Source: Massilicoli timonensis (GTDB taxonomy: Bacteria; Bacillota_I; Bacilli_A; Erysipelotrichales; Erysipelotrichaceae). From it: a DNA stretch of 32,000 nucleotides. The notes below the pieces were generated by a model that did not search any database, had not been told where the DNA came from, and was given only the letters and a program-made list of their open reading frames with translations. Below, in pieces: positions 3,355 through 30,001 of the stretch. A program made the translations under genes and the position numbers. The stretch is taken from NCBI RefSeq assembly GCF_900199515.1, contig NZ_LT963434.1:1083272-1115271 (forward strand), written 5' to 3'. How positions within the stretch are numbered: position 1 is the stretch's first letter; each line of letters starts with the position of its first letter.

Positions 3355-3717
3355 TTAGTCCTCTGCTTGTTCGACTTCTGTTATCTCCCTTGCCGTTGCG
3401 GTTACAATCCGTATGCCTTTATCGCTCATACCGTCCAGCAGCGCGTCAAGCTGCCGCCGCCCGGTGGATTTCTCCGCATTGCTGTTCGGGAAGAAAAATT
3501 GATCTACCGAAATATGATACCGGGTTACAAGGTCATAGAATACCTGTAAACTCGGCTGTTGTCCCTTGTTCTCGATATTCGCAAGGTAGCGCGGGGAAAT
3601 ATATAACTCGTCGCTTACCTTTTTGCGGCTCTCGCCGTATTCATTTCTCGCGGCTTTTATAGCTGCCCCGAAAGCCTTAAAGTCGTACAATGGTACGGGT
3701 CTTTTTGCCATTTTCAT
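3355..3717 (-). CDS. XRE-family helix-turn-helix transcriptional regulator (Tn916 orf9-like position)
   Basis: 120 aa with an HTH_3-type core (SRKKVSDELYISPRYLANIENKGQQPSLQVFYDLV). Transcribed divergently from the cargo promoter. Confidence 0.85.
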   Translation of the reverse strand: MKMAKRPVPLYDFKAFGAAIKAARNEYGESRKKVSDELYISPRYLANIENKGQQPSLQVFYDLVTRYHISVDQFFFPNSNAEKSTGRRQLDALLDGMSDKGIRIVTATAREITEVEQAED

Positions 3718-3804
3718 TCACCCTGTTACATTTTACAGTTCACCTTTCTTTTTGGATATGTCCACACAATTCATATCATTAGGTTAAATACTTCCTGTTG
3801 TGTA

Positions 3805-3833
3805 TTGACAGTAGACTGATTTTCTTATAAAAT
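3805..3833 (+). promoter_or_regulatory. sigma-A type promoter of the cargo cassette
   Basis: TTGACA (3805-3810), a 17-nt spacer, then TAAAAT (3828-3833). Confidence 0.55.
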
Positions 3834-3861
3834 AAAATTTATGTAAAAGGAGGCGGCGTTT

Positions 3862-3888
3862 ATGTTGCATAGCATGCGTATTAGATAA
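3862..3888 (+). CDS. candidate leader peptide MLHSMRIR (8 codons)
   Basis: SD AAAGGAGG (3846-3853) lies 8 nt before the ATG. The ORF sits between the promoter and a strong terminator. Internal sequence is complementary to two downstream segments (3951-3957, 4002-4008). Confidence 0.4.
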   Translation: MLHSMRIR

Positions 3889-4040
3889 GCATTGAAAAAA
3901 AGGATTTTCCCATTTTCAACATGGGCTTTTTTGTCATGCTTATTTTGCGGATGCTATACAAAAAACTAACGACGTATAGATATAGTATAGACATAGTGCA
4001 AGCTATGCCTTAGTTTTGTTGTACTGCTCTGTGCATTATA

Positions 4041-4086
4041 AATGCAGGTCAATGCTCATGTTGAGGATTGACCTGCATTTTTTTGT
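4041..4086 (+). terminator. strong intrinsic terminator upstream of the KTR/radical-SAM genes (attenuator candidate)
   Basis: Perfect 13-bp stem AATGCAGGTCAAT (4041-4053) / ATTGACCTGCATT (4067-4079), followed by a T-run to 4086. It ends 23 nt before the KTR start codon. Confidence 0.75.
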
Positions 4087-4109
4087 GTAAAAAGGACGAG
4101 TGAAATATA

Positions 4110-4295
4110 ATGCTTAAAAAATATTGGATAAAATGTCCGATTTGTAACGGAAAGACGAGAGTTCAAGTATTTCATAATACTGTATTAAAAGATTTTCCTC
4201 TTTTCTGCCCTAAATGCAAATTGACGCATATCATTGATGTAGAAAAATTAGAGATTGTAATCAAAAATACAGAAAAACAAACTTTTATTATTTAG
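4110..4295 (+). CDS. cysteine-rich KTR domain protein (4-Cys zinc ribbon)
   Basis: 61 aa with CPICNGKTR and CPKC motifs. AT-rich codon usage. Stops 16 nt before the radical-SAM start. Confidence 0.8.
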   Translation: MLKKYWIKCPICNGKTRVQVFHNTVLKDFPLFCPKCKLTHIIDVEKLEIVIKNTEKQTFII

Positions 4296-4311
4296 AAGAA
4301 AGGATATAAAA

Positions 4312-5295
4312 ATGAAACGTTTACCTAAATATACGCCTGCGGAAGTACGGAATGATCCATACGGATTTACTTACAAAGAAATGTCGGAAGTTATTGGCGA
4401 GAATGAAGCAAAAGCCTTATATGAAGAATTATATAAGCAATTACCACGCAAAAAAAATCTATCAATGTTGGTAAAAAATATTTGCAAAAGCAGTGATACT
4501 GAAAAGTATGTTTACGAACTGAAAGACAACAAATACATTGAAACGGTTTTTATCAAGCGGCGAGATGGTGGAACTGTTTGCGTGAGCACACAAGTCGGTT
4601 GTCCTGTTGGTTGTATTTTTTGTGAGTCCGGGCGAAATGGCTTTGTTCGTAATCTAACATCGTCAGAAATCGTACAACAGATTATATTGTTGCGTCGAAA
4701 AGTAAACCGTATCGTTTTTATGGGTATGGGAGAGCCTTTATTCAATTATGACAACTTGATAAAAGCAATCCATATTCTCCGAGATAGATATGGGCTCAAC
4801 TTTCCAACCGACGGCATTACCATATCAACAGTTGGTCCGGTCGATCAATTAAAAAAATTGCGCGAGGAACATCTTAAAATTCAGTTGACAATATCTTTAC
4901 ACGCAGCAACACAATCTGCAAGAAATCGTATTATTCCTCACATGCGCATATATGCTATTGAAGATGTTGTTAAGCAAGCCTTATCCTATTCTGAAAGGCA
5001 TAATCGCAAAATTGTCTTTGCGTATTTGCTTTTACCGGGTATAAATGACCGGCCCTCAGATGTAAGACAACTTGCAAAATGGTTTCGGGGCAAAAAAGTT
5101 ATGATTAACGTGTTACAATACAACCCAACAAGCAATTCAAGAATTAAAGCACCACAGAAACGGGAAATAGTTGCATTCAAACATCAATTAGAGCAAGCAG
5201 GACTTGAAGTTACTATGAGAGTTTCTCATGGCAGAGAGATTAACGCGGCTTGTGGACAGTTAGCTAACACATATAATAAATTCAAAAAAAAATGA
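4312..5295 (+). CDS. RlmN/Cfr-family radical-SAM 23S rRNA (A2503) methyl synthase homologue
   Basis: 327 aa. TVCVSTQVGCPVGCIFC (Cys90 plus the Cys97/101/104 radical-SAM cluster), FMGMGEPL, ITISTVG, LTISLHA and C-terminal INAACGQL (Cys314) align block for block with E. coli RlmN and S. aureus Cfr as I remember them. SD GAAAGGA precedes the ATG. Confidence 0.9.
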   Translation: MKRLPKYTPAEVRNDPYGFTYKEMSEVIGENEAKALYEELYKQLPRKKNLSMLVKNICKSSDTEKYVYELKDNKYIETVFIKRRDGGTVCVSTQVGCPVGCIFCESGRNGFVRNLTSSEIVQQIILLRRKVNRIVFMGMGEPLFNYDNLIKAIHILRDRYGLNFPTDGITISTVGPVDQLKKLREEHLKIQLTISLHAATQSARNRIIPHMRIYAIEDVVKQALSYSERHNRKIVFAYLLLPGINDRPSDVRQLAKWFRGKKVMINVLQYNPTSNSRIKAPQKREIVAFKHQLEQAGLEVTMRVSHGREINAACGQLANTYNKFKKK

Positions 5296-5323
5296 TTAAA
5301 AGTGCCAGACGCATAGACGCAGA

Positions 5324-5370
5324 GCCGATAACGCATTAGGTCAAAAAACCTATGTGTTATCGGCTTTTTT
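5324..5370 (+). terminator. Rho-independent terminator after the radical-SAM gene
   Basis: Stem GCCGATAAC (5324-5332) / GTTATCGGC (5356-5364), followed by TTTTTT (5365-5370). Confidence 0.75.
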
Positions 5371-5448
5371 ATTTAATATTGCGCAAAAGCCGCTGTTCCC
5401 TATTATAGAATGGATTGCGGGTAGTGTATTAAAGTCGCCCTTTTTTAA

Positions 5449-5493
5449 GGATACGGCGGTATCGGGGAGGTATCGCCGTGTCCATTTTTATTT
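5449..5493 (+). terminator. terminator-like hairpin 2
   Basis: GGATACGGCGGTATC (5449-5463) / GTATCGCCGTGTCC (5470-5483) with two G-U pairs, followed by ATTTTTATTT. Confidence 0.5.
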
Positions 5494-5605
5494 ACTGTAA
5501 CCCGCCTAATGCTTTGCGGTCAAAAAAAGCTATGCTCCGCAAGCGGGATATTCCGGCTATGAGTATGAACTGTCAATACATCTAAATACTTCTTACATTT
5601 CCTTT

Positions 5606-5647
5606 GCGCTCGTCCGCGTCTTGCGGACGGGCGCATTTTGCTTTTTT
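5606..5647 (+). terminator. terminator-like hairpin 3 upstream of the sigma factor gene
   Basis: GCGCTCGTCCGC (5606-5617) / GCGGACGGGCGC (5623-5634), followed by ATTTTGCTTTTTT. Confidence 0.5.
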
Positions 5648-5768: not shown

Positions 5769-6206
5769 ATGGAGCTATCTTCTTCCGACAAGGAAAGAAT
5801 ACAACATCAGTACGACGCATTAGCAAAGAAAACTTTGGTTGGCGAAGCGAAAAGCCACCGCCGCACTCTTGCGAAACGCGCAGCACGCGAAGTACCTTTT
5901 TCGGATTTGAGCGAAAGCGAACTCGCGCAGCTTTTCACAACGGACGAATACAAAAGCGATTATTTCCGTTTTCAAGTGTCCGGCTTTGATGTACTCGTCA
6001 AAAATGAACTGCTTGCCGAAGCCCTTAACGCTTTGCCCGAAAGGAAACGCGACATTATCCTTTTGTCCTACTTCTTGGACATGAGCGACGCGGAAATTGC
6101 TGAACTGCTGAATGTTGTACGCACGACGGTTTTCCGGCACAGGAAATCCGCGCTTGCGAAAATCAAACAGTATTTGGAGGGAAAAGCAGATGATGAATAC
6201 CGTTAG
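5769..6206 (+). CDS. sigma-70 family RNA polymerase sigma factor (Tn916 orf7-like)
   Basis: The ORF track starts at GTG 5760, but ATG 5769 has SD GGAAGGAGG 8 nt upstream. Region-4 HTH present (LSYFLDMSDAEIAELLNVVRTTVFRHRKSAL). Confidence 0.8.
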   Translation: MELSSSDKERIQHQYDALAKKTLVGEAKSHRRTLAKRAAREVPFSDLSESELAQLFTTDEYKSDYFRFQVSGFDVLVKNELLAEALNALPERKRDIILLSYFLDMSDAEIAELLNVVRTTVFRHRKSALAKIKQYLEGKADDEYR

Positions 6207-6432
6207 GAAATCTGAAAATCTGTTGCCGTTCCCTGTCATTTCCGCAGCGGCAAACGGCGACACAACCGCCATGTGCGCGATCTTGAAGCATTACGAGGGT
6301 TACATAGCGAAACTTTGTACCCGCACGCTGAAAGACGACGCGGGCAATACCTATTCCTATGTGGACGAGGAAATGCGTAACAGGCTGCAAGTGCGCCTTA
6401 TTACCCGCACCCTTGCTTTTCATGTAGGATAA
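6190..6432 (+). CDS. HTH_16-type helix-turn-helix protein (Tn916 orf8-like)
   Basis: ATG 6190 follows SD GGAGGG and overlaps the sigma stop. AAANGDTTAMCAILKHYEGYI resembles the conjugative-transposon HTH family and parallels E2 ORF 14406-14609 (AHEGDPDAIDTILSHYAGYI). Confidence 0.7.
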   Translation: MMNTVRKSENLLPFPVISAAANGDTTAMCAILKHYEGYIAKLCTRTLKDDAGNTYSYVDEEMRNRLQVRLITRTLAFHVG

Positions 6433-6438
6433 TCTTTT

Positions 6439-6845
6439 AGCCCATGCGGGGAGCGTGTCCCCTTTCCACGCTTCCCGTTATGGGCTATTTGTCGTTCCGT
6501 AACAGCACATCGGAAACGGTGTACTGTTACAGGCCGACAAAGCCTATTGTTCCTTGACAAAGAAAGCGGCCTTTGGTGCGCAGCATAACAGGCAACGGGT
6601 ACATTCCGTCTGTACCGAGCCGGGCGGCGGGTACGCCATGACCGCTTTTCCCCGTTGGGGAAAAGTCGAGCGAGAACTACCGCGCCGTAAAACAAGTTTA
6701 GCAGCTTGTGGGCGACGACATACAAGGCGGCACAATGATACTCCCGCGTTGAACACCCTCAAAGTATTGCGCGGCGCACCCATAAGCATGGGCCGGGGTG
6801 AAACTCCCGTGAGGTTGCAGCTAACAACCGCCCGTTTTGCCTTTT
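6439..6845 (+). ncRNA. candidate structured RNA / structured 5' leader of the tnpW-recombinase operon (unclassified)
   Basis: 455-bp GC-rich gap with no convincing ORF. Nested 17-bp hairpin at 6439-6486; 13-bp hairpin capped by a GAAA tetraloop at 6499-6530; perfect 9-bp stem at 6645-6665. Long-range complements: 6575-6581 with 6774-6780, and 6621-6627 with 6828-6834. Confidence 0.3.
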
Positions 6846-6887
6846 GACGAATATAGTTTATCCATACAGGAAAAGGAGGTTTTTCTA

Positions 6888-7061
6888 ATGGATAAAAAAC
6901 AGACAATTACAACCGAACGCAAAATAGGGAAAATCACCTATCTTGTTCAAGCGTTGCCGAGTGAAAAGGCAACCGATACAATCCATAAAAAGATTGAAAA
7001 ACTCATTGTAAAGGATTTGCAGAAAAAGCCCGGAAATCCGGGCTTTTTAGCGTCCGAGTAG
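6888..7061 (+). CDS. TnpW-family small transposon protein
   Basis: ATG 6888 is preceded by SD AAAAGGAGG. 57 aa. ERKIGKITYLVQALPSEKATDTIHKKIEKLI parallels the E2 ORF (EIRMGNTVLVVSGFFKKDTTSTAADKMARVL). Both sit directly upstream of a serine recombinase gene. Confidence 0.6.
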   Translation: MDKKQTITTERKIGKITYLVQALPSEKATDTIHKKIEKLIVKDLQKKPGNPGFLASE

Positions 7062-7080: not shown

Positions 7081-7089
7081 TGGTATAAT
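7081..7089 (+). promoter_or_regulatory. extended -10 promoter element (TGGTATAAT) upstream of the recombinase
   Basis: TGnTATAAT match located 50 nt before the recombinase ATG. Confidence 0.35.
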
Positions 7090-7138
7090 GATAGCAACAC
7101 ATTATACCTGTTTATTCGGCTGTCGGAAAGGAGGACTA

Positions 7139-9035
<1,897 letters not shown>

Positions 9036-9319: not shown

Positions 9320-10159
9320 TCATTCAGCCAGCAGTTTCTTCATGGTTTCCATTTTCCGCTTTGCGGTTTCCTGCCGGAAGTTGACGCCAGTAAAGCGTAT
9401 CGGGACGCACATGGACAGCAGTCGGTCATAAATCCGGGAATGGGCCGTGTCTGTCGGCTTTTTCAACTCGTCCAGCGGGCGGTTGGTGGTGGCGATCAGC
9501 GGCTTGTTGCTGCGGTATCGGGTATCAATCACATGGAATACCTGTTCCAGTCCATAGTCGGTGCCACGCTCCATGCCGAAGTCGTCAATGATAAGCAGCG
9601 GATAGCGGCAAAGGCGGGAAATATACTCATTCCGGCCTGTAAAGCCGGGAGAGAGGTCGCCCAGGATAACGGCGAAGTTCGTCATATATACGGGGACTTC
9701 TTTCTCCATGAGGGCGTTTGCGATACAGCCCGCAAGGTAGCTTTTCCCGTTGCCGACGTTCCCCCAGAACAGGCAGCCGATGTTTTCGGCCTGCATTTCT
9801 TCCCAATGCTCCGCATACCGCCGGGCAATCCCGGTCTGCGGGTTTCTGCCGTTGTCGTTCTCGAATGTCCATTGCTGCATGGCTGAGTCGGCAAAAGCCC
9901 TCTGTTTCAGATTTTCCACGGCTTCCACATGGCGGCGGTGTTCCTCGGCGGCCTGCCGCTGCTCACGGGCGGCTCTCTGGCAGTCGCACTCTGCCGGGTG
10001 GCGGTCACGGCCAAACAGCTCCTTACCCTCCGGGAAGTAGGCTTCTTTCGGCGTATGGCACTTTCCGCAGTAAAGCAGTCCGTCCTCGCCGATATAGTCC
10101 TCCATCTCCGGGGCGGCGGTTGTCATGTTCTCCAAAATATCTTTGATTTCACTTGTCAT
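9320..10159 (-). CDS. DnaC/IstB-like AAA+ ATPase (helicase-loader-like)
   Basis: 279 aa. Walker A GNVGNGKSYLAGCIANAL and Walker B LLIIDDFG. N-terminal Cys-rich segment. Overlaps the upstream rep-like gene by 4 nt. Confidence 0.8.
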   Translation of the reverse strand: MTSEIKDILENMTTAAPEMEDYIGEDGLLYCGKCHTPKEAYFPEGKELFGRDRHPAECDCQRAAREQRQAAEEHRRHVEAVENLKQRAFADSAMQQWTFENDNGRNPQTGIARRYAEHWEEMQAENIGCLFWGNVGNGKSYLAGCIANALMEKEVPVYMTNFAVILGDLSPGFTGRNEYISRLCRYPLLIIDDFGMERGTDYGLEQVFHVIDTRYRSNKPLIATTNRPLDELKKPTDTAHSRIYDRLLSMCVPIRFTGVNFRQETAKRKMETMKKLLAE

Positions 10160-11007
10160 AAGCTTTCTCCCTCCATACAGGTATAGTCGGGGATGCCCTG
10201 TTTTACGGCTCCCTTTTTGTCATTGGCCGCCCATCTGTGCAAGGCGGCGGCATAATTCTGGTAGGCTTTCCCGCTGGCGGCAAGGTAATGGCTCATTTCC
10301 TCAATCAGCCGTTCCAGCCTGTCCGGGTATTCTGCCTGTAACTCGTCATATTCGTCCTTTGACAGAAAAATATTCTCATATCGGCCATAAGCTGTGGGCG
10401 GCTCCCCACTCGCTCTCATTGTTTGGTTCTCTATTAAGTTGTTTATATTAGTTTTGTTAGGGGTCGGTTTTCCGACCATCATAGGGTCGGTTTTCCGACC
10501 GTCATAAGGTCGCTTTTCCGACTGTATGAGGGTCGCTTTTCCGGCCATCAGTTGGTCGGAAAACCGTACCACTGGGACAGGCGGCACTTTCACATAAAGC
10601 CGATTGGGTGCGGAGAAGCCCCGCCGTTCCCGTTCTAAAAGCCCGGCTGCGTCCAGTTCTTTCAAGGCTCCCTTGATGGCGGTACAACCCTTGTCCAGCA
10701 TTTCCGCTATCTCCGCAACGGGGTAGACAATGAATATCCTGCCCTCGCCGTCCTGCCAGCCGTTCTTCTGTGACAGGGTGGAGCGGTCTAATAAAAGCGC
10801 ATACAGCAGCTTGGCGGTCTGTGAAATCTCCATTTTCAGCAGGAAACGGGGGTATGGAAGATAGGCGGGCAGCGTGGTGTCTGCCCTGATATAATCAGCG
10901 ATAGTATCACCTCCCTCTGTGTTGTGTCGTTTTTGGGCTTTGTCACGCATTAGGACGGCATTTCCGGGGGGAAAGGATAAATGTATCGCATACCCTTTGA
11001 CACCCAC
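10156..11007 (-). CDS. RepA_N-like replication initiator protein (start uncertain: GTG 11007 or ATG 10950)
   Basis: YLPYPRFLL..ISQTAKLLYALLLDRSTLSQKNGWQDGEGRIFIVYP..IAEML..TAIKGALKELDAAGLLERERRG..PNRLYV matches the RepA_N N-terminal pattern. Contains internal 23-bp repeats. Confidence 0.7.
   Translation of the reverse strand: MGVKGYAIHLSFPPGNAVLMRDKAQKRHNTEGGDTIADYIRADTTLPAYLPYPRFLLKMEISQTAKLLYALLLDRSTLSQKNGWQDGEGRIFIVYPVAEIAEMLDKGCTAIKGALKELDAAGLLERERRGFSAPNRLYVKVPPVPVVRFSDQLMAGKATLIQSEKRPYDGRKTDPMMVGKPTPNKTNINNLIENQTMRASGEPPTAYGRYENIFLSKDEYDELQAEYPDRLERLIEEMSHYLAASGKAYQNYAAALHRWAANDKKGAVKQGIPDYTCMEGESL
10462..10576. repeat. five tandem 23-bp repeats (iteron-like) inside the rep gene
   Basis: Units start at 10462, 10485, 10508, 10531 and 10554. 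The 16-bp core GGTCGGTTTTCCGACC is itself palindromic, and the fifth unit carries the AAAA version. A 23-bp period is not divisible by 3, so each unit is read in a different frame. Confidence 0.85.
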
Positions 11008-11022
11008 GAAAAAAGCCTTGAT

Positions 11023-11409
11023 TTATGCGGGTTTGAAAGGCTCTAAAGCGTGACATTTCTGCCTTTGTTTCCGCTTTCTCTCGGCGGCTTTGCGTTTCTT
11101 CATGCACCCGGCGCAGCCGGGGCAGTATTTCCCCCGGTTGGATTTGGGGACAAAGGCCGCCCCGCAGACCGCGCAGCGTTTCCGGCTCCCCCGGTACAAG
11201 AGGGCTGCGGCCAGCTCCCCGTCAAGGGGCAGGACAGCCACACGGAACCAGCGGCACATGAGGGAATAGGAAATGCTCTGGACGCACACGCAAGGCTCCC
11301 CGTCGTCTAACAGCAGGCAGTTCCCCTCGTCGTAGTTACAGCACTCATGCACAAGGCGGCGGGCTGCCTGGTGCTGGCGGTAGTCCATGCGGGACGGCTT
11401 ATCGTTCAT
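11023..11409 (-). CDS. cysteine-rich VLP domain protein
   Basis: 128 aa. CCNYDEGNCLLLDDGEPCVCVQ..., the VLP motif (AVLPLD) and CAVCG...CPGC. Basic C-terminus. Overlaps the relaxase stop. Confidence 0.7.
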   Translation of the reverse strand: MNDKPSRMDYRQHQAARRLVHECCNYDEGNCLLLDDGEPCVCVQSISYSLMCRWFRVAVLPLDGELAAALLYRGSRKRCAVCGAAFVPKSNRGKYCPGCAGCMKKRKAAERKRKQRQKCHALEPFKPA

Positions 11410-13075
11410 GGCTCTGCTCCTTTCTGCGGTGCGGCTCTTCCCGGCGCAAAATCTGGTCGATGTTCCGCTTGACGGTCTGCAACTCCCTGAACCGCTGCTT
11501 CTGTTCGTGATAGGTGTTGTACAGGCCGTCTTTCTCGGAGATAAGCTGCTCGATCTCGGCCTGCAACGCTTTTCGGCCGGGCAGCTTGGTAAGCCCCTGT
11601 GCCTTGAAATACCGGGCGGCGGCTTCGGCTATGATAAAATCGCTCTCGTTTGCCTGGCGGTATGCGGCGCGGGCTTTCTCGGATTTCTGCGCTTTCAGCC
11701 CCTCGCGGATGGGCTTGGTCTTGGCATAGGCAAGTACCTGTTGCCGCAACTCCCTTTTCCCTTGCAGCTTCGTTTCCAGTGCTTTCAGTTCGCCGCTGGT
11801 CTGGCGCATTTCCTGATAGGCGGTAGCAACGGCGGCTTCAAGCTGTTCCGGGGAAGAAAAGCCGTACTGTTGGTAGATGGTCAGGGTCTTGGCGGCCTGT
11901 TTCAGATTGTGTATCTTCGCCCATCGTTCATAGCCTTTGCCCTTGCCCTCGGCCATCTTCTGCTCAATGTCCACAAGCCGCTGCACACTGTCCTGTCTGG
12001 GGTCGATTTTCCCTGTCTTTTCGCCCTGTAAGCGGCCTTTCCCGGCGTGTAGGTATTCGGGTATGGCTGCGGTCTGTTCGGCGGCTCTGGCGGCTTGGTG
12101 CTGCGGGGTGTAGCGAACCGTTACGCCCCTCTGGGCGTTCTGCTCCAAAACGGCAAGGACGGCGGTGCGGTCAAAGTCGCCGCCCAGCTTCCGGGCGGTG
12201 ATAGGCTTCGTCCTGTCTGGCGTGAGGTAGGACAGCCGCCCCCGGCTCTCCTTGACGGTCACACCCTCCCGCAACAGCAGAGAGGAAAACTCGTCAAAGC
12301 TGGCAGCGGTGGCAAGGGCTTTCCGTAGGGTCTGCCGCAGCTTCTCCTTGTTCGTTTCAAACTTGGTCTGCCGGGGCGTGATACCGCCTGCAATCATGGG
12401 GGCGTTCTGCTTGTCCAGTGCGGCCTGTCCCTTTTTCTGCGCCCAATATTCCCGGTCTGTGACACGGTTCTTGCTGCCGTTCAAGAGGTCGATTTGGTAA
12501 AGTCCTTCCCGGTGGCACATCTCCATGACCTCGGACTTGAAGTAGCGTAGGGCTGCGTCGGTGCAGCGGTGCTTGCACCCGGCTTTCGTGTCCGCTGGCC
12601 TGTCCATGTAGGGCAGGAACGGCACTTCCTCTATCCGCAGGCTGTTAATGACGATATGCACATGGATGTTGCCGCTGTGGTTATGCCCGTCCGGGTGGGT
12701 GCAGACAAGGGCCTGATGGCCGGGGAAATGCTCTTTACAGAATTGCTCCCCCAACGCCTGCGCCCGGTCTACGGTCAGGCCGTTGTCCGGCCCGTCCCGT
12801 GGGTCAAAGCTGATGATATAGTGGTGGCTTTTCACATCCTCCCGCCGCTGATTTTTCTCATAGCGGAGATTGGAGCGCATACACGCAACGGCAAAATCCT
12901 CGCCGCCGCAGTTCAGCGTGGACAAGCGATAATCCTCACGGGGGATAAGCCTGCCGTTTTCATCAAGGACGGGCTTCATAGTAAATTCGTCATGCTCAAA
13001 GAGCAGGTATTGTTCGGCGGCTCCGTAGTCGGCGTTCTTAGAGCCTAAATGCTTGAGTGTTGCCAACGGCGTCAC
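11399..13075 (-). CDS. relaxase / mobilization nuclease (MobA/VirD2-type)
   Basis: 558 aa. HHYIISF, then the HPDGHNHSGNIHVHIVIN histidine motif. C-terminal GYERWAKIHNLKQAAK is shared with the E1 relaxase. Start (GTG 13075 or TTG 13066) is uncertain. Confidence 0.85.
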   Translation of the reverse strand: MTPLATLKHLGSKNADYGAAEQYLLFEHDEFTMKPVLDENGRLIPREDYRLSTLNCGGEDFAVACMRSNLRYEKNQRREDVKSHHYIISFDPRDGPDNGLTVDRAQALGEQFCKEHFPGHQALVCTHPDGHNHSGNIHVHIVINSLRIEEVPFLPYMDRPADTKAGCKHRCTDAALRYFKSEVMEMCHREGLYQIDLLNGSKNRVTDREYWAQKKGQAALDKQNAPMIAGGITPRQTKFETNKEKLRQTLRKALATAASFDEFSSLLLREGVTVKESRGRLSYLTPDRTKPITARKLGGDFDRTAVLAVLEQNAQRGVTVRYTPQHQAARAAEQTAAIPEYLHAGKGRLQGEKTGKIDPRQDSVQRLVDIEQKMAEGKGKGYERWAKIHNLKQAAKTLTIYQQYGFSSPEQLEAAVATAYQEMRQTSGELKALETKLQGKRELRQQVLAYAKTKPIREGLKAQKSEKARAAYRQANESDFIIAEAAARYFKAQGLTKLPGRKALQAEIEQLISEKDGLYNTYHEQKQRFRELQTVKRNIDQILRREEPHRRKEQSHER

Positions 13076-13436
13076 CTACTTTCTTTAGGACTTCATACTT
13101 GAGGGCGGCAAGGTCGGCGGCCGCTTCCCGCAATTCCTTTGCCATAGCCGGGTAGGGGCTATGCCACTCGTTGAGGGTGCGGGCAATCTGGTTGAGATTG
13201 CCGCCAATCCTGCCGTACTCGGCTGTGAGCTTCCCGACAGCGGAGAGCAGCTCGTCATTGACTGACGACACATGGAGTACGGGGCGTATGGTAGTGCGCC
13301 GGATGGCCTGCCGGAGAAATTCGGACTGACTGATACCATAGGGCGCAAGCCGTTCTGTGAAGTCGGCGTATTCTTCATCGGTCAGCCGGGTTTTCACAAC
13401 ATGGCTGCGGTGGGGGGTGTTGTATCGCTTCGGCAT
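13038..13436 (-). CDS. mobC: MobC-family relaxosome accessory protein
   Basis: The track ORF starts at GTG 13457, but ATG 13436 has SD AAAGGAGG 9 nt upstream. RLTDEEYADF and GGNLNQIARTLN motifs present. Confidence 0.8.
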   Translation of the reverse strand: MPKRYNTPHRSHVVKTRLTDEEYADFTERLAPYGISQSEFLRQAIRRTTIRPVLHVSSVNDELLSAVGKLTAEYGRIGGNLNQIARTLNEWHSPYPAMAKELREAAADLAALKYEVLKKVGDAVGNTQAFRL

Positions 13437-13504
13437 GGGCTGTAAACCTCCTTTCACTTATCACAAAAAATGGGCTGGTCTGTTAGCTATTTTCGGGGCA
13501 TTTC

Positions 13505-15188: not shown

Positions 15189-15956
15189 TTATTTTAAGCT
15201 ATCACGTTTTACCTTCTTAAGCCTTACTATCATTACCATAGGAATTTCTTTGTTGGTTTTGAAACATTCTTCATAAAATCCATCAATGACAAATCCAGCT
15301 CTAAAACAAAGGTTAAAAATATCTTGTATGGAACGATGATAATAAATCTGCTCTTTCGGTTGCCCTTCAATCGCTATATCATAGTAACTGTGCGGTGTCA
15401 TATATTTTTCAGTCAACGTGACAAAACAAGGGTGTTGCGTTGCAAAGACAAAAATTCCGCTTTCCTGCAACAGTTCATAAACAGCCATAAGAAGTGGTTC
15501 AATGTCCGTAATATCCATAATTGCCATATTAGAAACTGCTTTCGTAAAGGCTCGATTTCTTTTTAATTCTAATATACTTTTTCTATCGGTCGCATCCGCC
15601 ACACAAAATTCAATTTGTTTTGCATATTGTGATTGCCGTCTTTTAGCCAATTCTATCATTTTTTTGCTGTAATCAAAAGCGACAACCGAAGCACCTCTTT
15701 GTGCAAGATACGAAGAATAATTTCCATTGCCACACGCAATATCCAAAATGTAATCCGCAGGATTAGGAGATAGAAGTTCCGTTACTTTGGGGCGCACTAC
15801 CTCTCTGTGAAATTCATTAGATTCGTCACCCATTGCATTATCCCAAAATTGTGCGTTCTCCTCCCAGATTTTTTTACTTTCCTCTGTTCCCATGTTCTCT
15901 CCCACTCCCAAAATTTGCTTTTTTGCTTCCATTAAATCTTCCTTACTATATTCCAT
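15189..15956 (-). CDS. class I SAM-dependent methyltransferase (substrate unknown)
   Basis: 255 aa. Motif I ILDIACGNGNYS, acidic loop VVAFDYS, and post-I/II motifs. AT-rich. Confidence 0.85.
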   Translation of the reverse strand: MEYSKEDLMEAKKQILGVGENMGTEESKKIWEENAQFWDNAMGDESNEFHREVVRPKVTELLSPNPADYILDIACGNGNYSSYLAQRGASVVAFDYSKKMIELAKRRQSQYAKQIEFCVADATDRKSILELKRNRAFTKAVSNMAIMDITDIEPLLMAVYELLQESGIFVFATQHPCFVTLTEKYMTPHSYYDIAIEGQPKEQIYYHRSIQDIFNLCFRAGFVIDGFYEECFKTNKEIPMVMIVRLKKVKRDSLK

Positions 15957-16724: not shown

Positions 16725-18644
16725 TTACATTATCTTCTGAAACATATAGCGCACCTTGTCCAGGCGGCTGTTTGGACGGCGGGGCTGGATGACTGGCTTG
16801 CCGACAGCGGCCTGATACCCTTTCAGTTCTGTAAGGCATACGCTCTGCCCGTTGGTGTAAAAGGCCAGATCAGTACGGTATGCCTGTATACAGCGGGCGG
16901 GAATCTCGCCAGTAAAGACAACTTCATCCTTTTTTACCTGGACCGTTTCGATGGTGGCACAGTATTTCGGTGCATCATGATAAGCCCTGGAAAGATATTC
17001 CCGGGGCGCATAGAGGGTGAAGGAGAGATAAGGTTCCAGCAGTTGCGTCCCTGATTCCTTCAATGCCTGTTCCAATACAATCGGGGCCAATGAGCGGAAG
17101 TCCGCCGGCGTGCTGACCGGACTGTAATAAAGCCCGTATTCAAAGCAAATCTTACAGTCCGTTACGTTCCAGCCGAACAAGCCCTGCTCCAGCCCGTAAC
17201 GGATACCATCCCTGACAGCGTTTTGAAAACTCTGGTTCAAGTATCCCAGCGAAACCCGGCTCTCGTATTGTACACCGGAGCCAAGCGGGAGTGGTGTAAC
17301 AGACAGTCCGATGGATGCCCAAAACGGGTTGGGCGGCACCTCGATATGGATGGTGTGGCTGGCTGCTTTGAGCGGCCGCTCCATATAAATGACGGTGGGT
17401 TCCTTTACCACTGTTTCAAGCTTGTATTTTTCCGACAGCAAAGCGGAAACAACCTCCAACTGCACCCGGCCCAAAAAAGAAAGAATGATCTCATGGGTGA
17501 TGGAATCCACCTCGCAGCGCAAAAGCGGGTCAGTATCCGCAAGTTGCGTAAGAGCGTCCAGCAGCCGTTCTCTTTGCGCTGCCGTTTTCGGCGCAATCGA
17601 CGTCCGCAGCATGGGGAGGGGGTCCTCACGCCACCTTTTACGAGGGAGCCGGGTTGGGTCCCCTAATACATCGTTTAACCTCACGCTGTCGCTGGGAAGG
17701 ATAACAATTTCACCCGGATAAGCGGTGTCTGTCCGAACAATTTCCCCTTTGGATGGAATACGCATCTCTGTGATTTTCAGCTTTTCTCTCCCGGCCAGGG
17801 CCACCGTATCCCGCAGGCGCAGCGTTCCGCTGTATAGCCGTAGATAGACACGCCGCTGGCCGCAATCTGTATACTCCACCTTGAAAACGCTGCCGCATAG
17901 GGCGGCGCTCCCCTGTTCCCCAATCGGTTGGAACAGCCCTGTCACCGCATCCATCAACGGTTGAATGCCAAGGCCCTTTTTGGCGCTGCCATAATAGACC
18001 GGGAACAGGGAGGCGTCTTGAACCCGCCGCTGTTCCTCCCGCACAAGTTTTTCCCGGCTGATTGGTTCTCCTGCGATATACTTTTCCAATAATTTATCGT
18101 TATTTTCGATGACCGCATCCCATGCTTCTATGTCGGTATTTTCCTCCAGGACTATTTCCGGGGACAGCGACACCGTCTGCTTGATGATAATATCGGCGGA
18201 GAGCTTATCCCGAACAGACTGAACCACGCTCTGCAAATCAACGCCAGCCTGGTCGATCTTGTTGATAAAGATAACGGTGGGAATGTTCATTTTCCGCAGG
18301 GCATGGAACAGAATACGGGTCTGGGCCTGCACGCCATCTTTAGCGGAGATCACCAAGATGGCCCCATCTAAAACAGCCAAAGAGCGGTACACCTCCGCCA
18401 AAAAATCCATGTGGCCGGGCGTATCCACAATGTTGACTTTACATCTGTGCCACTGGAAGGAAGTGACTGCCGCTTGAATGGTAATCCCACGCTGCCGCTC
18501 CAAAAACATGGTGTCCGTCCTCGTTGTCCCTTTTTCGACGCTCCCCGGTTCTGAAATGGCTCCGCTGGCATATAGCAGGCTCTCCGTCAAGGTCGTCTTT
18601 CCAGCGTCTACATGGGCAAGAATTCCAATATTGATTATTTTCAT
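16725..18644 (-). CDS. tet(W): ribosomal protection tetracycline resistance protein, Tet(W)-type
   Basis: 639 aa. EF-G-like GTPase ([18 protein letters not shown]). N-terminal [53 protein letters not shown] and C-terminal ...[13 protein letters not shown] match Tet(W) as I remember it and differ from Tet(M)/Tet(O). A mosaic tet allele cannot be excluded by eye. Confidence 0.92.
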
Positions 18645-18948: not shown

Positions 18949-19265
18949 CATCAGTTTTAGGAAAACAAGTATCTAAAAGAAATTTTTCTTCCCCTTATAT
19001 GTAACAATCATACCGGCTTCCTAACGTTCAGAATGGTTTCTACTGTCTGCTGCGGTGTTTGGTTGGAATTGTCCAGCCAAAAGCCGATCCGTGGTGTTGT
19101 CTGCATTTTACTAAATACAAATTCAATGTATACAGAAAGAAATATATAAGGAGTGGGAGGGATTCCGCCGTAGTCGGCATTGTAGGAAAATCCAAAAGTT
19201 TAGATTTTCTCAAAATGCTTATCTTTTGGTCTTTGGTTCGGAATAGTGTAGTGCTGGCGGTCTAT

Positions 19266-19829
19266 CTATTGTTTTCGGTTGCTTGCTTCTTTACCGTACA
19301 TGAGCATTAGCATTTCTTTGGAAACGATCATATTCAGATGATGCATCAAAACTTTCATCACTTCAGCTTCTTTATAACCCAAATGGATCGATTTACCATT
19401 ACAGGTCAGATTATGATTGGAAAGATGAAAGGTCAGATCATCAAACACCAGTTCTTCCAGCACCACTTCTCCCTGACGACGGGAAAGCGCACGAATACGC
19501 GCCAGCAGCTCTTCACTGGAAAACGGCTTTGTCATATAGTCATCCGCACCGCTGTCTAATCCCTGGATCTTATCCTGCACATCATCCTTTGCCGTTAACA
19601 TCAGCACCGGCACCTGATTGTGAAGCTGACGCAGTTCTCTGACGACATCAAATCCGTTTTTCCCCGGAAGCATGACATCTAAAAGCATGACATCATATTC
19701 CTGAAGCATGGCGTAAGTAACCGCATCATCGCCATTATCGATCAGATCGACCTGATATTTCTGTTCTTTTAACAATTCACAGATCGCACTGCCGAGGTTG
19801 ATCTCATCTTCTACTACCAGTATCCGCAT
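19266..19829 (-). pseudogene. OmpR/PhoB-family response regulator, 3'-truncated by insertion of E2
   Basis: ATG 19829 (SD GAGGTG) gives MRILVVEDE... The receiver domain is intact (DLIDNGDD, LLDVMLPG, LTAKD). The winged-helix domain stops 8 residues after the conserved MYG, and about 40 C-terminal residues are missing. Composition changes at this point. Confidence 0.75.
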
Positions 19830-20049
19830 TCCTCTCACCTCACTTTCTACATTAAAACACAAGGACCATGCCCTGTAAACAGTATAATGAGGAAAACTGA
19901 AAATAAACTGAAATCAGGATAAGAAAGCACAACCGTTTTACATCAAACACTTCCCAGTACAAGTTCCTACTATGTGAATGGTTTTGAGATACTTTCTCTT
20001 TTTAATTTACCTCTACCTTTCCCTAAATTAAAAAGCAGGCATTTGCCCG

Positions 20050-20907
20050 CTATTTCCCATATCGCTTAAAATACTGAATGGCCTGACAGCCCAGCCCCGT
20101 ATGCGCCGATACCACGCTCACTAACGGAATCAGCGTATGATGTGCATCAGGGAATGCCGCCTTTAATTTGTCTTGCAGAACATGTCCTTCCGCTTCACTG
20201 TCTACATGCGCAACGATGATTTCCCAGTTTTCGTCAATGCCGTCTTGCTTCATCAAATCGACGGACTGATCCATCGCTCGATGCAGCGTACGCACCTTCC
20301 CCACCACATCGATCTTTCCCGCTGTTTTCTGATTGATCTGCAAGATCGGCTTGATCTTTAATAAACCGCCTAAGGTTGCCGCAAGCGGTGTCAAACGCCC
20401 GCCGCGCTTCAAATGCTGAAGATCATCCGGCATCAGCAGCGTATTGGTAGAAGCCACGACTTCCTCTAAGATCGCTTTGATTTCCGCAATGCTCTTTTGT
20501 TCTTCTTCATACAGTCGCTTTGCCAGTACGATCAAATATTCTTCGACAACAGCTGTTACATGGCAGTCCACATAATCAAACGCAATGCCGACTTGCTCTG
20601 CCGTCATCTTCATTGCCTGTATCGTACCGGAAAGTCCGCTGCAGATCGGTACCGCAAAGATCATATCATAGCCTTCCTGTTTGAGCTGTGTAAACAGATC
20701 TTCGATCATTCCGGCTGCCGGTAAACTTGTTTTCAAATTGATCTGACGACGCATGAGCGCATTCACATCTTCTAATGTGATCTCAACCAAATCTAATTTA
20801 TTCTCCTCTTCATAACTGATCTGAAGCGGCAGGGAATAAACGCCCTGCGCTTTCATTTCTTCAATTGTTTTTCCGGTTCCGCTGTCGGTTACGAATGCTA
20901 CTTTCAT
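20050..20907 (-). CDS. DegV-family fatty-acid-binding protein
   Basis: 285 aa. MKVAFVTDSG..., SGLSGT and KRGGR motifs typical of DegV/FakB. Confidence 0.9.
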   Translation of the reverse strand: MKVAFVTDSGTGKTIEEMKAQGVYSLPLQISYEEENKLDLVEITLEDVNALMRRQINLKTSLPAAGMIEDLFTQLKQEGYDMIFAVPICSGLSGTIQAMKMTAEQVGIAFDYVDCHVTAVVEEYLIVLAKRLYEEEQKSIAEIKAILEEVVASTNTLLMPDDLQHLKRGGRLTPLAATLGGLLKIKPILQINQKTAGKIDVVGKVRTLHRAMDQSVDLMKQDGIDENWEIIVAHVDSEAEGHVLQDKLKAAFPDAHHTLIPLVSVVSAHTGLGCQAIQYFKRYGK

Positions 20908-20981
20908 TGCTGGTACCCCTCTTCATTTCTATTTGTCTCTATTTTATCACAGTTTATGCAATCCTGCATGATTTCCTGCTC

Positions 20982-21857
20982 TTAATCCCATTCACTTTTT
21001 CGAATCGTCTGTAAAGCGAGACAGCCATCGCCTGTATGGCAGCCAAGCACCGTCGGCAGTTCCATTTCACTGATTTCAAAATCTCCGACCTGCTTACGCA
21101 CCGCTTCAGCCAGACGCTTCGCCGCCTCTTGACTGTTGGCGTGTGGAATACATAGACGATGTGTTTCCGGCGTTACGCCATGTTCTTTCAGATCGTCGCA
21201 GATCATTTGAAACAGCTTGGTTTCTGTTCTTGCCATACCGAACTTATCCACGCATGAGCCATCCTCTGCCAGCTTCAGCAGCGGTTTGATCTTCAATAAA
21301 CCGGCTACCGCCGCGGCTGCCGGTGAGATTCGCCCGCCTCTTTTTAACTGTACCAAATCCTTGGGAATGGCATAAGTCATCGTATCATCCAGTTTTTCCG
21401 CTAATACGTTTAAGATCGTTTCCAGCGGCGCATTTGCTTCAGCCATCTTCTTTGCGCAGCACGCACAGTCCTGAAGCGGCGCTGCCAGCGTTCTGGTTTC
21501 GATCACATGCACTTCATCCATCTCAAGTGATTCTGCCGCAAACCGAAAGCCCTGATAGGTGCCTGATAGACCGGCTGCGATCGGCAGGACGATGATCGCA
21601 TCATAATGCGCTTCCTTCCACTGCTTCATGCAGTTTTCCAAATAACCGGGATTCGGCTGTGAAGTCGTCGGCAGTTTGCCTTCTGCCTGTGCCGCATATA
21701 ACTCATTTGCACGCATTTCGATCTGATCTTTATATTCCTTATCATCCAGTAAAACAGATAAGGCAACCAAAGCAACGCCTGCTTTTTGCGCATCCGCTTC
21801 ATTCCAGCCCGATGTCGTATCGGTTACCACTAATATTTTTGACTGTTCCATAAACAT
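20982..21857 (-). CDS. DegV-family fatty-acid-binding protein (paralogue)
   Basis: 291 aa. ILVVTDTTSG, AGLSGTYQ and LKRGGRISP motifs. Confidence 0.9.
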   Translation of the reverse strand: MFMEQSKILVVTDTTSGWNEADAQKAGVALVALSVLLDDKEYKDQIEMRANELYAAQAEGKLPTTSQPNPGYLENCMKQWKEAHYDAIIVLPIAAGLSGTYQGFRFAAESLEMDEVHVIETRTLAAPLQDCACCAKKMAEANAPLETILNVLAEKLDDTMTYAIPKDLVQLKRGGRISPAAAAVAGLLKIKPLLKLAEDGSCVDKFGMARTETKLFQMICDDLKEHGVTPETHRLCIPHANSQEAAKRLAEAVRKQVGDFEISEMELPTVLGCHTGDGCLALQTIRKSEWD

Positions 21858-22059
21858 CCTCTTTTCTTCTTTTCCCGCACATTATACACATGCTTTATTT
21901 GATTGTCAAACTATTTTCATTTCATTGCTGTTCTATGCAACTGCATTATACTATATCCTATTCTCATAGTAAAACAGATTTTCATTTCACTTATGATCAG
22001 ATTATGCTTGTATGTGTGATTTCTTTCTTTTATAATGAAAAACAAAGAGAGGTGAAGCC

Positions 22060-22668
22060 ATGTATCGCTTGCATGCAGACAGCCATTACGAAATCGAAAT
22101 CAAAAAATCCCGTTTTATCTGTTATCTGCATAAATGTGATACAGAAGCGGATGCCAAAGCATTTATTCAGCAGATCCGCAGGCAGCACCCGGATGCCAGA
22201 CATCACTGCTATGCGTTTATTATCGGTGAGCATCATGAGCTGATGCGAAGCAGCGATGACGGCGAACCGCATGGCACTGCCGGCGTACCGATGCTGGAGT
22301 GTTTGAAGAAACATGAGGTCGAGCAGATCGTCGCGGTAACCGTACGTTATTTCGGCGGTGTTTTATTAGGAGCAGGCGGCCTGGTGCGCGCTTACTCACA
22401 AAGTGTATCACAGGCGTTATCGCATGCGACGCTCACGACACCGACCTTGATGAAGCGTTACCGTCTGACTTTTTCTTACGCTTTGATCGGTAAGATCGAT
22501 CATTTATTAAAAGGACAGGCTGACATCATCGACAAGCAGTATGATGAAAAAGTAACGTATCTTTACCGCACCGATAATCCACATCTAAGCGAACAGATCG
22601 CCGAGCTGAGCGCCGGCAAAGAGCTGCCTCACTATTTAGAAGATGAGATCGTGGAAAAAGCGATCTGA
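22060..22668 (+). CDS. YigZ / IMPACT-family protein (UPF0029)
   Basis: 202 aa. EIKKSRFI, ARHHCYAF, SDDGEP.GTAG.PML and RYFGG..LG.GGLVRAY motifs. Confidence 0.85.
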   Translation: MYRLHADSHYEIEIKKSRFICYLHKCDTEADAKAFIQQIRRQHPDARHHCYAFIIGEHHELMRSSDDGEPHGTAGVPMLECLKKHEVEQIVAVTVRYFGGVLLGAGGLVRAYSQSVSQALSHATLTTPTLMKRYRLTFSYALIGKIDHLLKGQADIIDKQYDEKVTYLYRTDNPHLSEQIAELSAGKELPHYLEDEIVEKAI

Positions 22669-22679
22669 TGAAGTAGATC

Positions 22680-22705
22680 AAAACAGCCGAAAACGGCTGT
22701 TTTTC
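22680..22705. terminator. bidirectional Rho-independent terminator
   Basis: ACAGCCG (22683-22689), AAAA loop, CGGCTGT (22694-22700). Flanked by A-run and T-run, between convergent genes. Confidence 0.75.
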
Positions 22706-22760
22706 AATGTACACGATAAAAAAGAAACGCCCTAATCGCGCTCCTTTTTCGCTCTAATGA

Positions 22761-23012
22761 TCAAAACAAAAACAATTCACTGAGTTCAACGTCCAGCGCT
22801 TTGGCCAGCCGTTCAATGATCTTCAAAGAAACATTGCGTTCTCCTCTTTCCATATCCGATACATAATTGCGGTGGATACCGGAAAATTCCGCAAGTTTTT
22901 CTTGCGACCAGCCTTTTGCTTTACGCAGTTTTCTAACCCTCTTCCCAAATGCAATACAAATCGTGCTTTCATCCGTTTGGTCTATCATGTCGCTCGGTAG
23001 TAATCCATTCAT
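22761..23012 (-). CDS. XRE-family HTH transcriptional regulator
   Basis: 83 aa with the HTH_3 core FGKRVRKLRKAKGWSQEKLAEFSGIHRNYVSDMERGERNVSL. Confidence 0.8.
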   Translation of the reverse strand: MNGLLPSDMIDQTDESTICIAFGKRVRKLRKAKGWSQEKLAEFSGIHRNYVSDMERGERNVSLKIIERLAKALDVELSELFLF

Positions 23013-23093
23013 GATTTCACCCTACCCTTTCACACTTTTATTTATATGAAAATGATACCAATTACCTGATTGAACGTCTACCTATGATAAGTG

Positions 23094-23609
23094 TTAGTGG
23101 AATTTTTTGTAAAGAAAAAATACAAAAACAGAGGCCCAAACCATGCTGCTGAACCCTAAAATGAGATTTCCTCTGGTATGATCGGGGACATCTCGCTGTT
23201 TCACTGCCGTACTGATCGTTTCTTCGCTCTGCGTGGCATCCTGCATTTCTTTGGCATAACGATACTGTGGATTGCGTATTGCGACAGAGGCGATTTCTCG
23301 TTCCAATAGGATCGACTGCACCAATTTCCCATCTGCGAATACATACACATCAAGCGGCTCCTCAATAGCGGAAACCGCGTCTGCCTCAATCTCCAAGCGC
23401 TTTGCCTGTTCTAAGAGCGGACATACTTGTTTTTGTCCTTCCTCGCTGATCCATACATTAAACAACGTGATCGGAAAGACGCTTTCCTCATATTCTACAA
23501 GGATCTGTTCCTCGCTGCACGCATGCAAATTCACTTCGTATCTCGTCCCGTGTAAAAAAGGAAAAAAGGCAGCTATCCATGCCAGTATATACCTCATATA
23601 CATCACCAC
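23094..23609 (-). CDS. membrane-anchored protein with a degenerate staphylococcal-nuclease-like core (hypothetical)
   Basis: 171 aa with N-terminal and C-terminal hydrophobic segments. LEIEADAVSAIEEPLDVYVFADGKLVQSILLEREIASVAI resembles the SNase IEVEFDKG...[25 protein letters not shown], but the DTPE catalytic/Ca-binding motif is absent. Confidence 0.45.
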   Translation of the reverse strand: MVMYMRYILAWIAAFFPFLHGTRYEVNLHACSEEQILVEYEESVFPITLFNVWISEEGQKQVCPLLEQAKRLEIEADAVSAIEEPLDVYVFADGKLVQSILLEREIASVAIRNPQYRYAKEMQDATQSEETISTAVKQRDVPDHTRGNLILGFSSMVWASVFVFFLYKKFH

Positions 23610-23635
23610 TTCTAGTCTGCACTTTTCATTGCCTT

Positions 23636-26377: not shown

Positions 26378-26530
26378 CACATACACCTCATTTCTAGTCT
26401 TATAGTACCACACCCAAAGATGTCCTGCCAGCGTTTCTTTGATAAATGTCAGATGCGTTCCTGCCGCCTGTCCATCATATCCGCAAAGAAACGTATTTTT
26501 CCTAACCTTTTATGAAAACACGTATCGCAT

Positions 26531-26553
26531 CTAAAAAAGCCGGTTTCCCGGCT
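26531..26553 (-). terminator. Rho-independent terminator after trxB
   Basis: On the minus strand: AGCCGG-GAAA-CCGGCU followed by UUUUUUA. The stem overlaps the stop codon. Confidence 0.7.
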
Positions 26554-28957: not shown

Positions 28958-28992
28958 AAAAAGCAGTTCACGTTGCTCATGAACCGCTTTGC

Positions 28993-29937: not shown

Positions 29938-30001
29938 AGCAGTTCCTTTCCATCTCGTTACTATGATTACAGACTACACTGAAATTAGTCTGAAACTACG
30001 A

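Follow-up and report, generated by a model that had tools for sequence, protein, structure and literature searches.

A mobile mrmA gene in Massilicoli timonensis and its predicted macrolide-responsive leader RNA

Introduction

The window analysed here is a stretch of 32,000 nucleotides from Massilicoli timonensis (assembly GCF_900199515.1, contig NZ_LT963434.1, positions 1,083,272 to 1,115,271 of the forward strand). It carries mrmA, a gene for a radical S-adenosylmethionine (SAM) methyl synthase of the RlmN/Cfr superfamily, within an AT-rich cargo segment. An earlier note, made from the sequence alone, had taken the gene for an undescribed, transferable methylase of the 23S rRNA nucleotide A2503. 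Our overall reading is that it is mrmA, a transferable radical-SAM resistance methyl synthase with predicted leader-based regulation, and we hold this to be very likely. The cargo consists of the following features, with positions numbered from the first nucleotide of the window:

3864..4092, plus strand: leader/attenuator RNA, minimum free energy (MFE) -87.5 kcal/mol, z = -5.2
4110..4295, plus strand: Cys_rich_KTR gene (KTR below), 61 amino acids, zinc-ribbon-like (Pfam PF14205, 75.4 bits, E = 3e-21), ending 16 nt before mrmA
4312..5295, plus strand: mrmA, ATG to TGA, 327 amino acids, an RlmN/Cfr-superfamily radical-SAM methyl synthase in which Radical_SAM (PF04055) is detected
5321..5372, plus strand: terminator-like hairpin with U-run at the 3' end of the mrmA transcript, MFE -30.9 kcal/mol, z = -6.45

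The mrmA gene

The product of the open reading frame (ORF) at 4312-5295 is identical at 327/327 amino acids to MrmA as given in Table S4 of PMC11983580. MrmA (WP_002584956.1) was named in a March 2025 study of Clostridioides difficile ribotype 176 in Emerg Microbes Infect and was described there as an 'RlmN-like' protein on Tn6105 within Tn6110/Tn7806 (PMC11983580). The DNA of the window ORF equals published mrmA over the first 399 nt (399/399, all the nucleotides given in Table S4), and both mrmA cloning primers of that study have exact matches in the window (4315-4334 and 5273-5295). The sigma protein that adjoins mrmA in the window is identical at 142/145 residues to its counterpart beside mrmA in Tn6110. 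The window ORF is mrmA, a previously published transferable resistance gene; the gene is not undescribed, as the earlier note had supposed.

The sequence features read by eye in that note were borne out. The motif TVCVSTQVGC, starting at residue 88, supplies Cys90; CPVGCIFC, starting at residue 97, supplies Cys97, Cys101 and Cys104; and AACGQL, starting at residue 312, supplies the methyl-carrier Cys314. The gene is AT-rich, with a GC content of 0.373 in the ORF versus 0.49-0.50 in both flanks. GC content is 0.36 over 3718-5520 and falls to 0.269 in the KTR gene upstream of mrmA.

Placement of MrmA between RlmN and Cfr

Profile searches placed MrmA below the curated cut-offs of both families. 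On the RlmN equivalog model TIGR00048, whose cut-off is 290, it scored 277.6 bits, and on the Cfr family models (NF000424 / TIGR04432 set) it scored 199.5, 192.9 and 194.9 bits against cut-offs of 530, 550 and 468. Seven relatives of 47-85% identity also fell under the RlmN cut-off, at 258-277 bits on TIGR00048. A scan of NCBIfam release 20 turned up no MrmA model.

A clear gap in identity separates MrmA from ordinary RlmN. Among 1.84 billion representatives, searched exhaustively, the nearest ordinary RlmN was at most 45% identical, and only four full-length sequences, of 47-59% core identity, bridged the MrmA clade and RlmN. Among GTDB representatives, clade members are at least 69% identical to MrmA and the next group stands at 43%. 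A neighbour-joining (NJ) tree was built from 75 sequences over 261 columns with 300 bootstraps. The chimeric representative P0201 was excluded from it; with P0201 included, the clade looked non-monophyletic. The MrmA clade together with the four bridging sequences split from the 53 RlmN-type sequences in 300/300 bootstraps, so that MrmA falls outside housekeeping RlmN, and Cfr was sister to the clade in 5/300. The suggestion that the gene might belong to an uncharacterised clade thus held in part: MrmA is neither RlmN nor Cfr, on which PMC11983580 concurs, and it had already been characterised as MrmA. Recent capture of a chromosomal rlmN was ruled out by the identity gap (at least 69%, then 43%), by the presence of only four bridges, and by two arginines, described next, that these bridges share with the clade.

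The active site was compared at ten positions listed as differing between Cfr and RlmN in a 2026 Cfr structure paper. MrmA has I81, R83, G87, T88, N132, R133, V135, V304, S305 and H306 at these positions; 0/10 are Cfr-like and 3/10 match E. coli RlmN. Within the clade, nearly every member has Arg83 (102/105) and Arg133 (103/105), and the four bridging sequences share this signature. The catalytic cysteines are kept in 104-105 of 105 clade members. The composition of the pocket supports a distinct substrate site upon what would be RlmN-like chemistry.

MrmA shares with RlmN (TIGR00048; structures 3RFA, 5HR7 and 6FZ6) the fold, the Fe-S motif and the two mechanistic cysteines (C118 and C355 in E. 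coli). Ile81, Thr88 and Val135 are common to both, and Ser305 aligns with a Thr/Ser of RlmN. The local motif is more RlmN-like than Cfr-like, as had been noted by eye, with TVCVSCQVGC in the RlmN structure 6fz6 and FCISSQCGC in Cfr. RlmN differs in being ~37-45% identical, in having a longer N-terminal domain, and in carrying Glu/Tyr and Asn/His where MrmA has Arg83 and Arg133. RlmN is a housekeeping enzyme (23S m2A2503 / tRNA m2A37), whereas MrmA is mobile and AT-rich and confers macrolide resistance. Like MrmA, Cfr and Cfr(B-E) are mobile resistance genes of the radical-SAM rRNA-methylase superfamily. Cfr (9P0P) is 33% identical to MrmA over the core, and its Gln329, needed for C8 specificity, aligns with Ser305 of MrmA. 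A Cfr(B/C/D/E) or other Cfr-like gene was considered and ruled out by the profile scores, the active-site residues and published drug susceptibilities.

The N-terminal offset given in the earlier note was confirmed by alignment. Cys97 of MrmA pairs with Cfr Cys112 and Cys90 with Cfr Cys105 (HMMER alignment, 9p0p); in E. coli RlmN the equivalent of Cys90 is Cys118, which puts the start of the cluster motif at 125. Alignment to the RlmN model begins only at MrmA residue 39, at profile position 55, and the RlmN_N domain was not detected in MrmA by a Pfam scan. In an AlphaFold2 model (predicted local distance difference test score, pLDDT, 90.6) residues 9-42 form three helices, and overlays gave template modelling (TM) scores of 0.84-0.87 with RlmN (full-length; the best structural matches) and 0.70 with Cfr. 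In this model the N-terminal domain is shortened, not lost.

A candidate macrolide-responsive attenuator upstream of mrmA

The leader region upstream of the KTR gene contains the following elements, all on the plus strand:

3805..3833: sigma-70-type promoter, TTGACA-17-TAAAAT, 11/12 consensus positions, the best site of the region by consensus match only
3846-3853: Shine-Dalgarno sequence AAAGGAGG, with an 8-nt spacer to the leader ATG
3862-3888: leader ORF of 8 codons, MLHSMRIR-stop, ErmDL-like, with the macrolide arrest motif Arg6-X-Arg8
Leader codons paired with 3933-3958: long hairpin of the leader RNA, enclosing hairpin T1
3909-3925: hairpin T1, followed by a U-run and then by a middle hairpin
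4041-4085, with U7 to 4092: intrinsic terminator T2, a 13-14-bp hairpin just 5' of the KTR ribosome-binding site
3918-3927 with 4054-4063: candidate antiterminator formed by T1:T2 complementarity

Loci whose MrmA homologue has 73-100% identity keep the leader peptide in the form MLHS(M/I)RIR(K), with synonymous codon changes in the leader of locus L001. The 3' half of T1 (CAACAUGGGC) and the apex of T2 (GCUCAUGUUG) are complementary at 10/10 positions in 7/7 leader variants. This pairing shows covariation at two positions, and in a targeted register test other registers reached only 2-5/10. RNAalifold applied to five leader variants retained the consensus structure but showed little covariation (one pair), in part owing to a codon-length misalignment. 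When the RNA was folded with the leader blocked, as a mimic of a stalled ribosome, the antiterminator formed before the 3' arm of T2 was transcribed.

The closest known parallel is the ErmDL leader of ermD. The ErmDL peptide starts with MTHSMRLR, with arrest at Arg6-Leu7-Arg8 (PMC8298421). It matches the window leader at 6/8 residues in the same register, and both are short upstream ORFs (uORFs) preceded by a Shine-Dalgarno sequence with Arg-X-Arg at codons 6-8. Downstream of ErmDL in ermD the RNA can take mutually exclusive structures, as is predicted for the window leader. The two systems differ in that ErmDL-ermD regulates an Erm N6-methyltransferase, whereas the window leader precedes a radical-SAM enzyme with KTR in between. 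The window uORF also ends right after Arg8, and its read-out appears to be transcription termination (T2 + U7).

A sequence of events can be proposed on this basis. Transcription from the promoter at 3805-3833 would yield a leader RNA with the MLHSMRIR reading frame. When no drug is present, ribosomes would translate the leader and transcription would stop at T2, so that an RNA of ~230-250 nt results. A macrolide-bound ribosome would stall at Arg6-Ile7-Arg8 and release the 3' strand of the long hairpin. The freed 3918-3927 could then pair with 4054-4063, block T2 and let RNA polymerase continue into KTR-mrmA. Modified ribosomes would no longer bind the drug, and induction would turn itself off. 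We consider macrolide-induced transcription antitermination of KTR-mrmA to be likely from the conserved leader sequence and its predicted folds. Should the predicted macrolide sensing be true, mrmA would be silent until drug exposure, and the concordance of phenotype with genotype would be affected.

Part of this region has a counterpart in Rfam. The model RF02862 (sRNA_1300) matches 3864-4085 over its whole length (model 1-231/231) with 49.5 bits against a gathering score of 48.8 and a local E-value of 2e-10. In Enterococcus faecium, sRNA_1300 is a 230-nt RNA that has been validated by Northern blot and lies on a genomic island. RF02862 has the hairpin and terminator architecture of the window leader, and its consensus encodes ...SMRLR-stop in the same register. 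It differs in being annotated as a stand-alone Enterococcus small RNA (sRNA), and its similarity to the window leader is moderate. That a 230-nt terminated RNA fits an uninduced attenuator suggests that sRNA_1300 may really be an attenuated leader transcript.

Several observations weigh against regulation by macrolide sensing. Complete T2 is the thermodynamic minimum even with the leader blocked, so the antiterminator must act kinetically. The leader of locus L111 reads MLHSIRIWR, in which the strict +X+ motif is broken. Bacteroidota copies of mrmA lack the leader, so induction is not obligatory, and the RF02862 match exceeds its gathering score by only 0.7 bits.

The same facts bear on the best-surviving alternative, in which the upstream 'leader' would be a free-standing sRNA of the sRNA_1300 type or a regulator of the transposon backbone, and not a macrolide sensor. 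It draws on the Rfam classification of the homologous E. faecium transcript as an sRNA and on Bacteroidota mrmA copies that work without the leader. It does not account for a uORF preceded by a Shine-Dalgarno sequence whose peptide is kept while the DNA diverges, synonymous changes included, nor for the agreement with ErmDL. The leader also travels with mrmA homologues outside the transposon backbone (L012, L102) and precedes a Mef(A)-like pump in L109, and an uninduced attenuator would give just such a terminated RNA of 230 nt. On balance this alternative is unlikely, and attenuation of KTR-mrmA is preferred.

The text of PMC11983580 mentions neither leader, attenuator nor KTR. No paper was retrieved with the leader peptide sequence, and the regulatory reading was not found in the searchable literature. 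A blastn search of the leader against plasmids returned only two already-known records.

The KTR gene

The KTR gene has the same orientation as mrmA and would be co-transcribed with it. It holds the same position in 8/10 contexts of exact MrmA; a 59-amino-acid version occurs in L004, and none was called in L005. It is also kept in variants with MrmA homologues of 73-85% identity. L102 and the Segatella copy L024 lack KTR, and in L112 no gene was called between the leader and the mrmA homologue. The published study cloned the mrmA ORF alone (PMC11983580), so KTR is unnecessary for resistance in E. coli. Literature searches on Cys_rich_KTR gave nothing informative on its role. A KTR paralogue, 45% identical, lies just 3' of a tet ribosomal-protection gene in L002 (2625-2798, minus strand). 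KTR genes seem to accompany cargo for resistance to ribosome-targeting drugs.

Resistance phenotype and target of MrmA

The activity of MrmA has been characterised in an E. coli ΔtolC host. MrmA raised the minimal inhibitory concentration (MIC) of erythromycin from 2 to 512-1024 ug/mL, reported as 512-fold, and that of pristinamycin IA from 64-128 to 1024 ug/mL, or ~8-fold; the quinupristin-dalfopristin MIC rose ~3-fold (PMC11983580). MICs of tylosin, pristinamycin IIA, clindamycin, tiamulin, chloramphenicol and linezolid were unchanged (PMC11983580). In C. difficile, mrmA correlates with an erythromycin MIC >256 mg/L in ermB-negative isolates (PMC11983580). A separate study of ribotype 955 (RT955) C. 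difficile found the same correlation of mrmA with erythromycin, and AMRFinderPlus gave no erythromycin determinant there. The view that the gene is horizontally carried resistance cargo rather than a housekeeping rlmN is borne out.

The spectrum differs from that of Cfr. The earlier note implied a Cfr-like phenotype against phenicols, lincosamides, oxazolidinones and pleuromutilins, together with streptogramin A (PhLOPSA). This does not agree with the published MICs, which are unchanged for PhLOPSA drugs and 512x for erythromycin. The two spectra are opposite, since Cfr (m8A2503) leaves erythromycin unchanged and MrmA leaves the PhLOPSA drugs unchanged. MrmA is not a Cfr-type multidrug determinant; it confers resistance to 14-membered macrolides and streptogramin B. 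In an independent study of Cfr in E. coli ΔbamBΔtolC, the erythromycin MIC stayed at 2 ug/mL with Cfr expression or rlmN deletion. Neither m8A2503 nor m2A2503 therefore explains the MrmA phenotype, and the reading of the gene as an A2503 methylase goes against the published MICs. An adenine other than A2503 was suggested as the MrmA target by its discoverers (PMC11983580), and the target nucleotide is probably not A2503.

In the mechanism that appears most plausible, MrmA would add a methyl group to a ring carbon of a 23S rRNA adenine near the macrolide site, and this mark would block the binding of 14-membered macrolides and, in part, of streptogramin B. Cys97, Cys101 and Cys104 (CX3CX2C) would hold the [4Fe-4S] cluster, Cys314 would serve as methyl carrier and Cys90 as resolving cysteine. 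C2-type chemistry on a new target is our favoured guess because the active site resembles that of RlmN more than that of Cfr (Thr88, Val135, Ser305). We infer each of three things: that MrmA acts catalytically on rRNA, which nucleotide it targets, and that macrolides induce it. The full combination, in which MrmA places a C-methyl on a 23S adenine other than A2503 and a macrolide-stalled ribosome switches on mrmA through the MLHSMRIR terminator/antiterminator RNA, has in our judgement about an even chance of being right. Its first half had already been hypothesised in PMC11983580. If true, a radical-SAM mark at the macrolide site would be a new kind of rRNA resistance modification.

Modification mapping, a catalytic-Cys mutant and rRNA mass spectrometry of MrmA are absent from searchable papers, and an mrmA knockout in C. 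difficile is absent from PMC11983580 and from the RT955 study.

Resistance might instead arise without rRNA methylation, with MrmA modifying tRNA, binding the ribosome or perturbing its assembly. RlmN itself is a dual rRNA/tRNA enzyme (tRNA A37; RlmN-tRNA structures), and neither catalytic mutants nor modification mapping have been published for MrmA. Such an explanation is nevertheless quite improbable. A 512-fold, class-specific MIC shift is typical of target-site modification, a spectrum of 14-membered macrolides plus streptogramin B points to the binding site in the exit tunnel, and the catalytic cysteines are conserved in nearly all clade members. A transferable A2503 methylase, either Cfr-like (C8, PhLOPSA) or a second RlmN (C2), is the least probable reading of all: the superfamily and catalytic residues common to RlmN/Cfr, the RlmN and Cfr structures as best fold matches and the RlmN label given by the Prokaryotic Genome Annotation Pipeline (PGAP) speak for it, but the MICs for chloramphenicol, clindamycin, linezolid, tiamulin and pristinamycin IIA are unchanged while erythromycin rises 512x, Cfr or rlmN deletion leaves the erythromycin MIC as it was, a chromosomal rlmN is already present in the E. 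coli and C. difficile hosts, and MrmA lies under both curated profile cut-offs with 0/10 Cfr active-site positions. Methylation of a different 23S adenine is the reading that we carry forward.

Genomic context

The cargo lies in a slot of a transposon backbone whose remaining features are these:

3355..3717, minus strand: divergent XRE/HTH_3 regulator (Pfam HTH_3 and DBD_HTH), the left border of the cargo slot
5449-5483 and 5605-5635, plus strand: two more terminator-like hairpins, upstream of the sigma gene
5769-6206, plus strand: gene for a sigma-70 region-4 protein, on the right side of the slot in the transposon backbone
~6190-6432, plus strand: gene for an HTH_16 protein of the backbone regulatory module
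6732-6812, plus strand: pemK RNA motif (Rfam RF02913; 49 bits, gathering score 34.8), 5' of a TnpW-like ORF and the recombinase
Within 6837-7061, plus strand: TnpW-like small ORF, labelled from the same module in homologous loci
7088-8812, plus strand: large serine recombinase gene, the integration module of the backbone

The position of mrmA between the XRE gene and the sigma/HTH_16 genes is as the earlier note had described it; the comparison with tet(M) of Tn916 is approximate. In Tn916, tet(M) is located upstream of orf9 rather than between orf9 and orf7. The three stacked terminators behind mrmA would insulate, or possibly gate, the transposon regulatory module from cargo transcription. 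Read-through of the Tn916 kind from mrmA into the sigma, HTH_16 and recombinase genes, with drug-induced transfer, is not claimed, given that three strong terminators intervene. Upstream of mrmA, Tn6110 has a LytTR response regulator and a hybrid ORF, whereas the window has XRE, MobC, relaxase and ArdA/TTRAP genes of a Tn1549-like conjugative element. The pemK RNA motif also occurs in the homologous loci L001, L007 and L025.

Further along the window, an N-terminal fragment of a second serine recombinase (8805-9005, minus strand; labelled by eye) abuts the end of the 7088-8812 gene. The region 9320-13457 holds a DnaC-like ATPase, a replication-initiator-like ORF, a second relaxase (11399-13075) and a MobC-like ORF, all labelled by eye. 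The arrangement of these features points to nested or tandem mobile elements.

A tet(W) gene lies at 16725-18644 on the minus strand (639 amino acids, 1284.8 bits on the TetM/W/O/S model), and at the DNA level it shares 99.7-99.8% identity with tet(W) regions from Limosilactobacillus reuteri plasmids. When 19000-32000 of the window was compared with plasmids, the tet(W) flank alone gave matches. With tet(W) and mrmA the window holds two resistance determinants that act on the ribosome. Beside tet(W), at 15189-15956 on the minus strand, is an AT-rich gene for a 255-amino-acid class-I SAM-dependent methyltransferase with weak, generic family matches.

Spread and relatives

The index lists the exact MrmA protein in 70,093 assembly blocks, and its contexts are many and varied. 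GTDB representatives carry it with 100% identity in Merdibacter and Dysosmobacter and with 99% in Segatella copri, and mrmA copies of 99-100% identity occur across gut Bacillota and Bacteroidota. As of 2025, mrmA is not reported by AMRFinderPlus. Resistome surveys on current catalogues probably miss a very common macrolide determinant that is annotated as housekeeping 'RlmN'.

In S. copri, a 1,088-bp segment (window 4262-5349), without leader or KTR, lies in-frame inside a Ser/Thr kinase gene. The resulting mrmA-kinase fusion ORF (L024 4728-5984; P0001) has 418 amino acids. P0002 and P0006 have the same left junction as P0001 and are joined to other genes. In L004, an insertion sequence element lies upstream of mrmA.

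Relatives of at most 69% identity lack leader and KTR and occur in other contexts. More closely related homologues are found beside other resistance genes. At L109/L110 (1300-3984), an apparent operon comprises the leader, a Mef(A)-like major facilitator superfamily (MFS) pump, KTR and a 78%-identical mrmA homologue. At L112 (5724-7004), an Lsa-family ABC-F gene lies downstream of a 93%-identical homologue. Resistance genes for drugs of the exit tunnel and the peptidyl transferase centre (PTC) group together at L109/L110 and L112.

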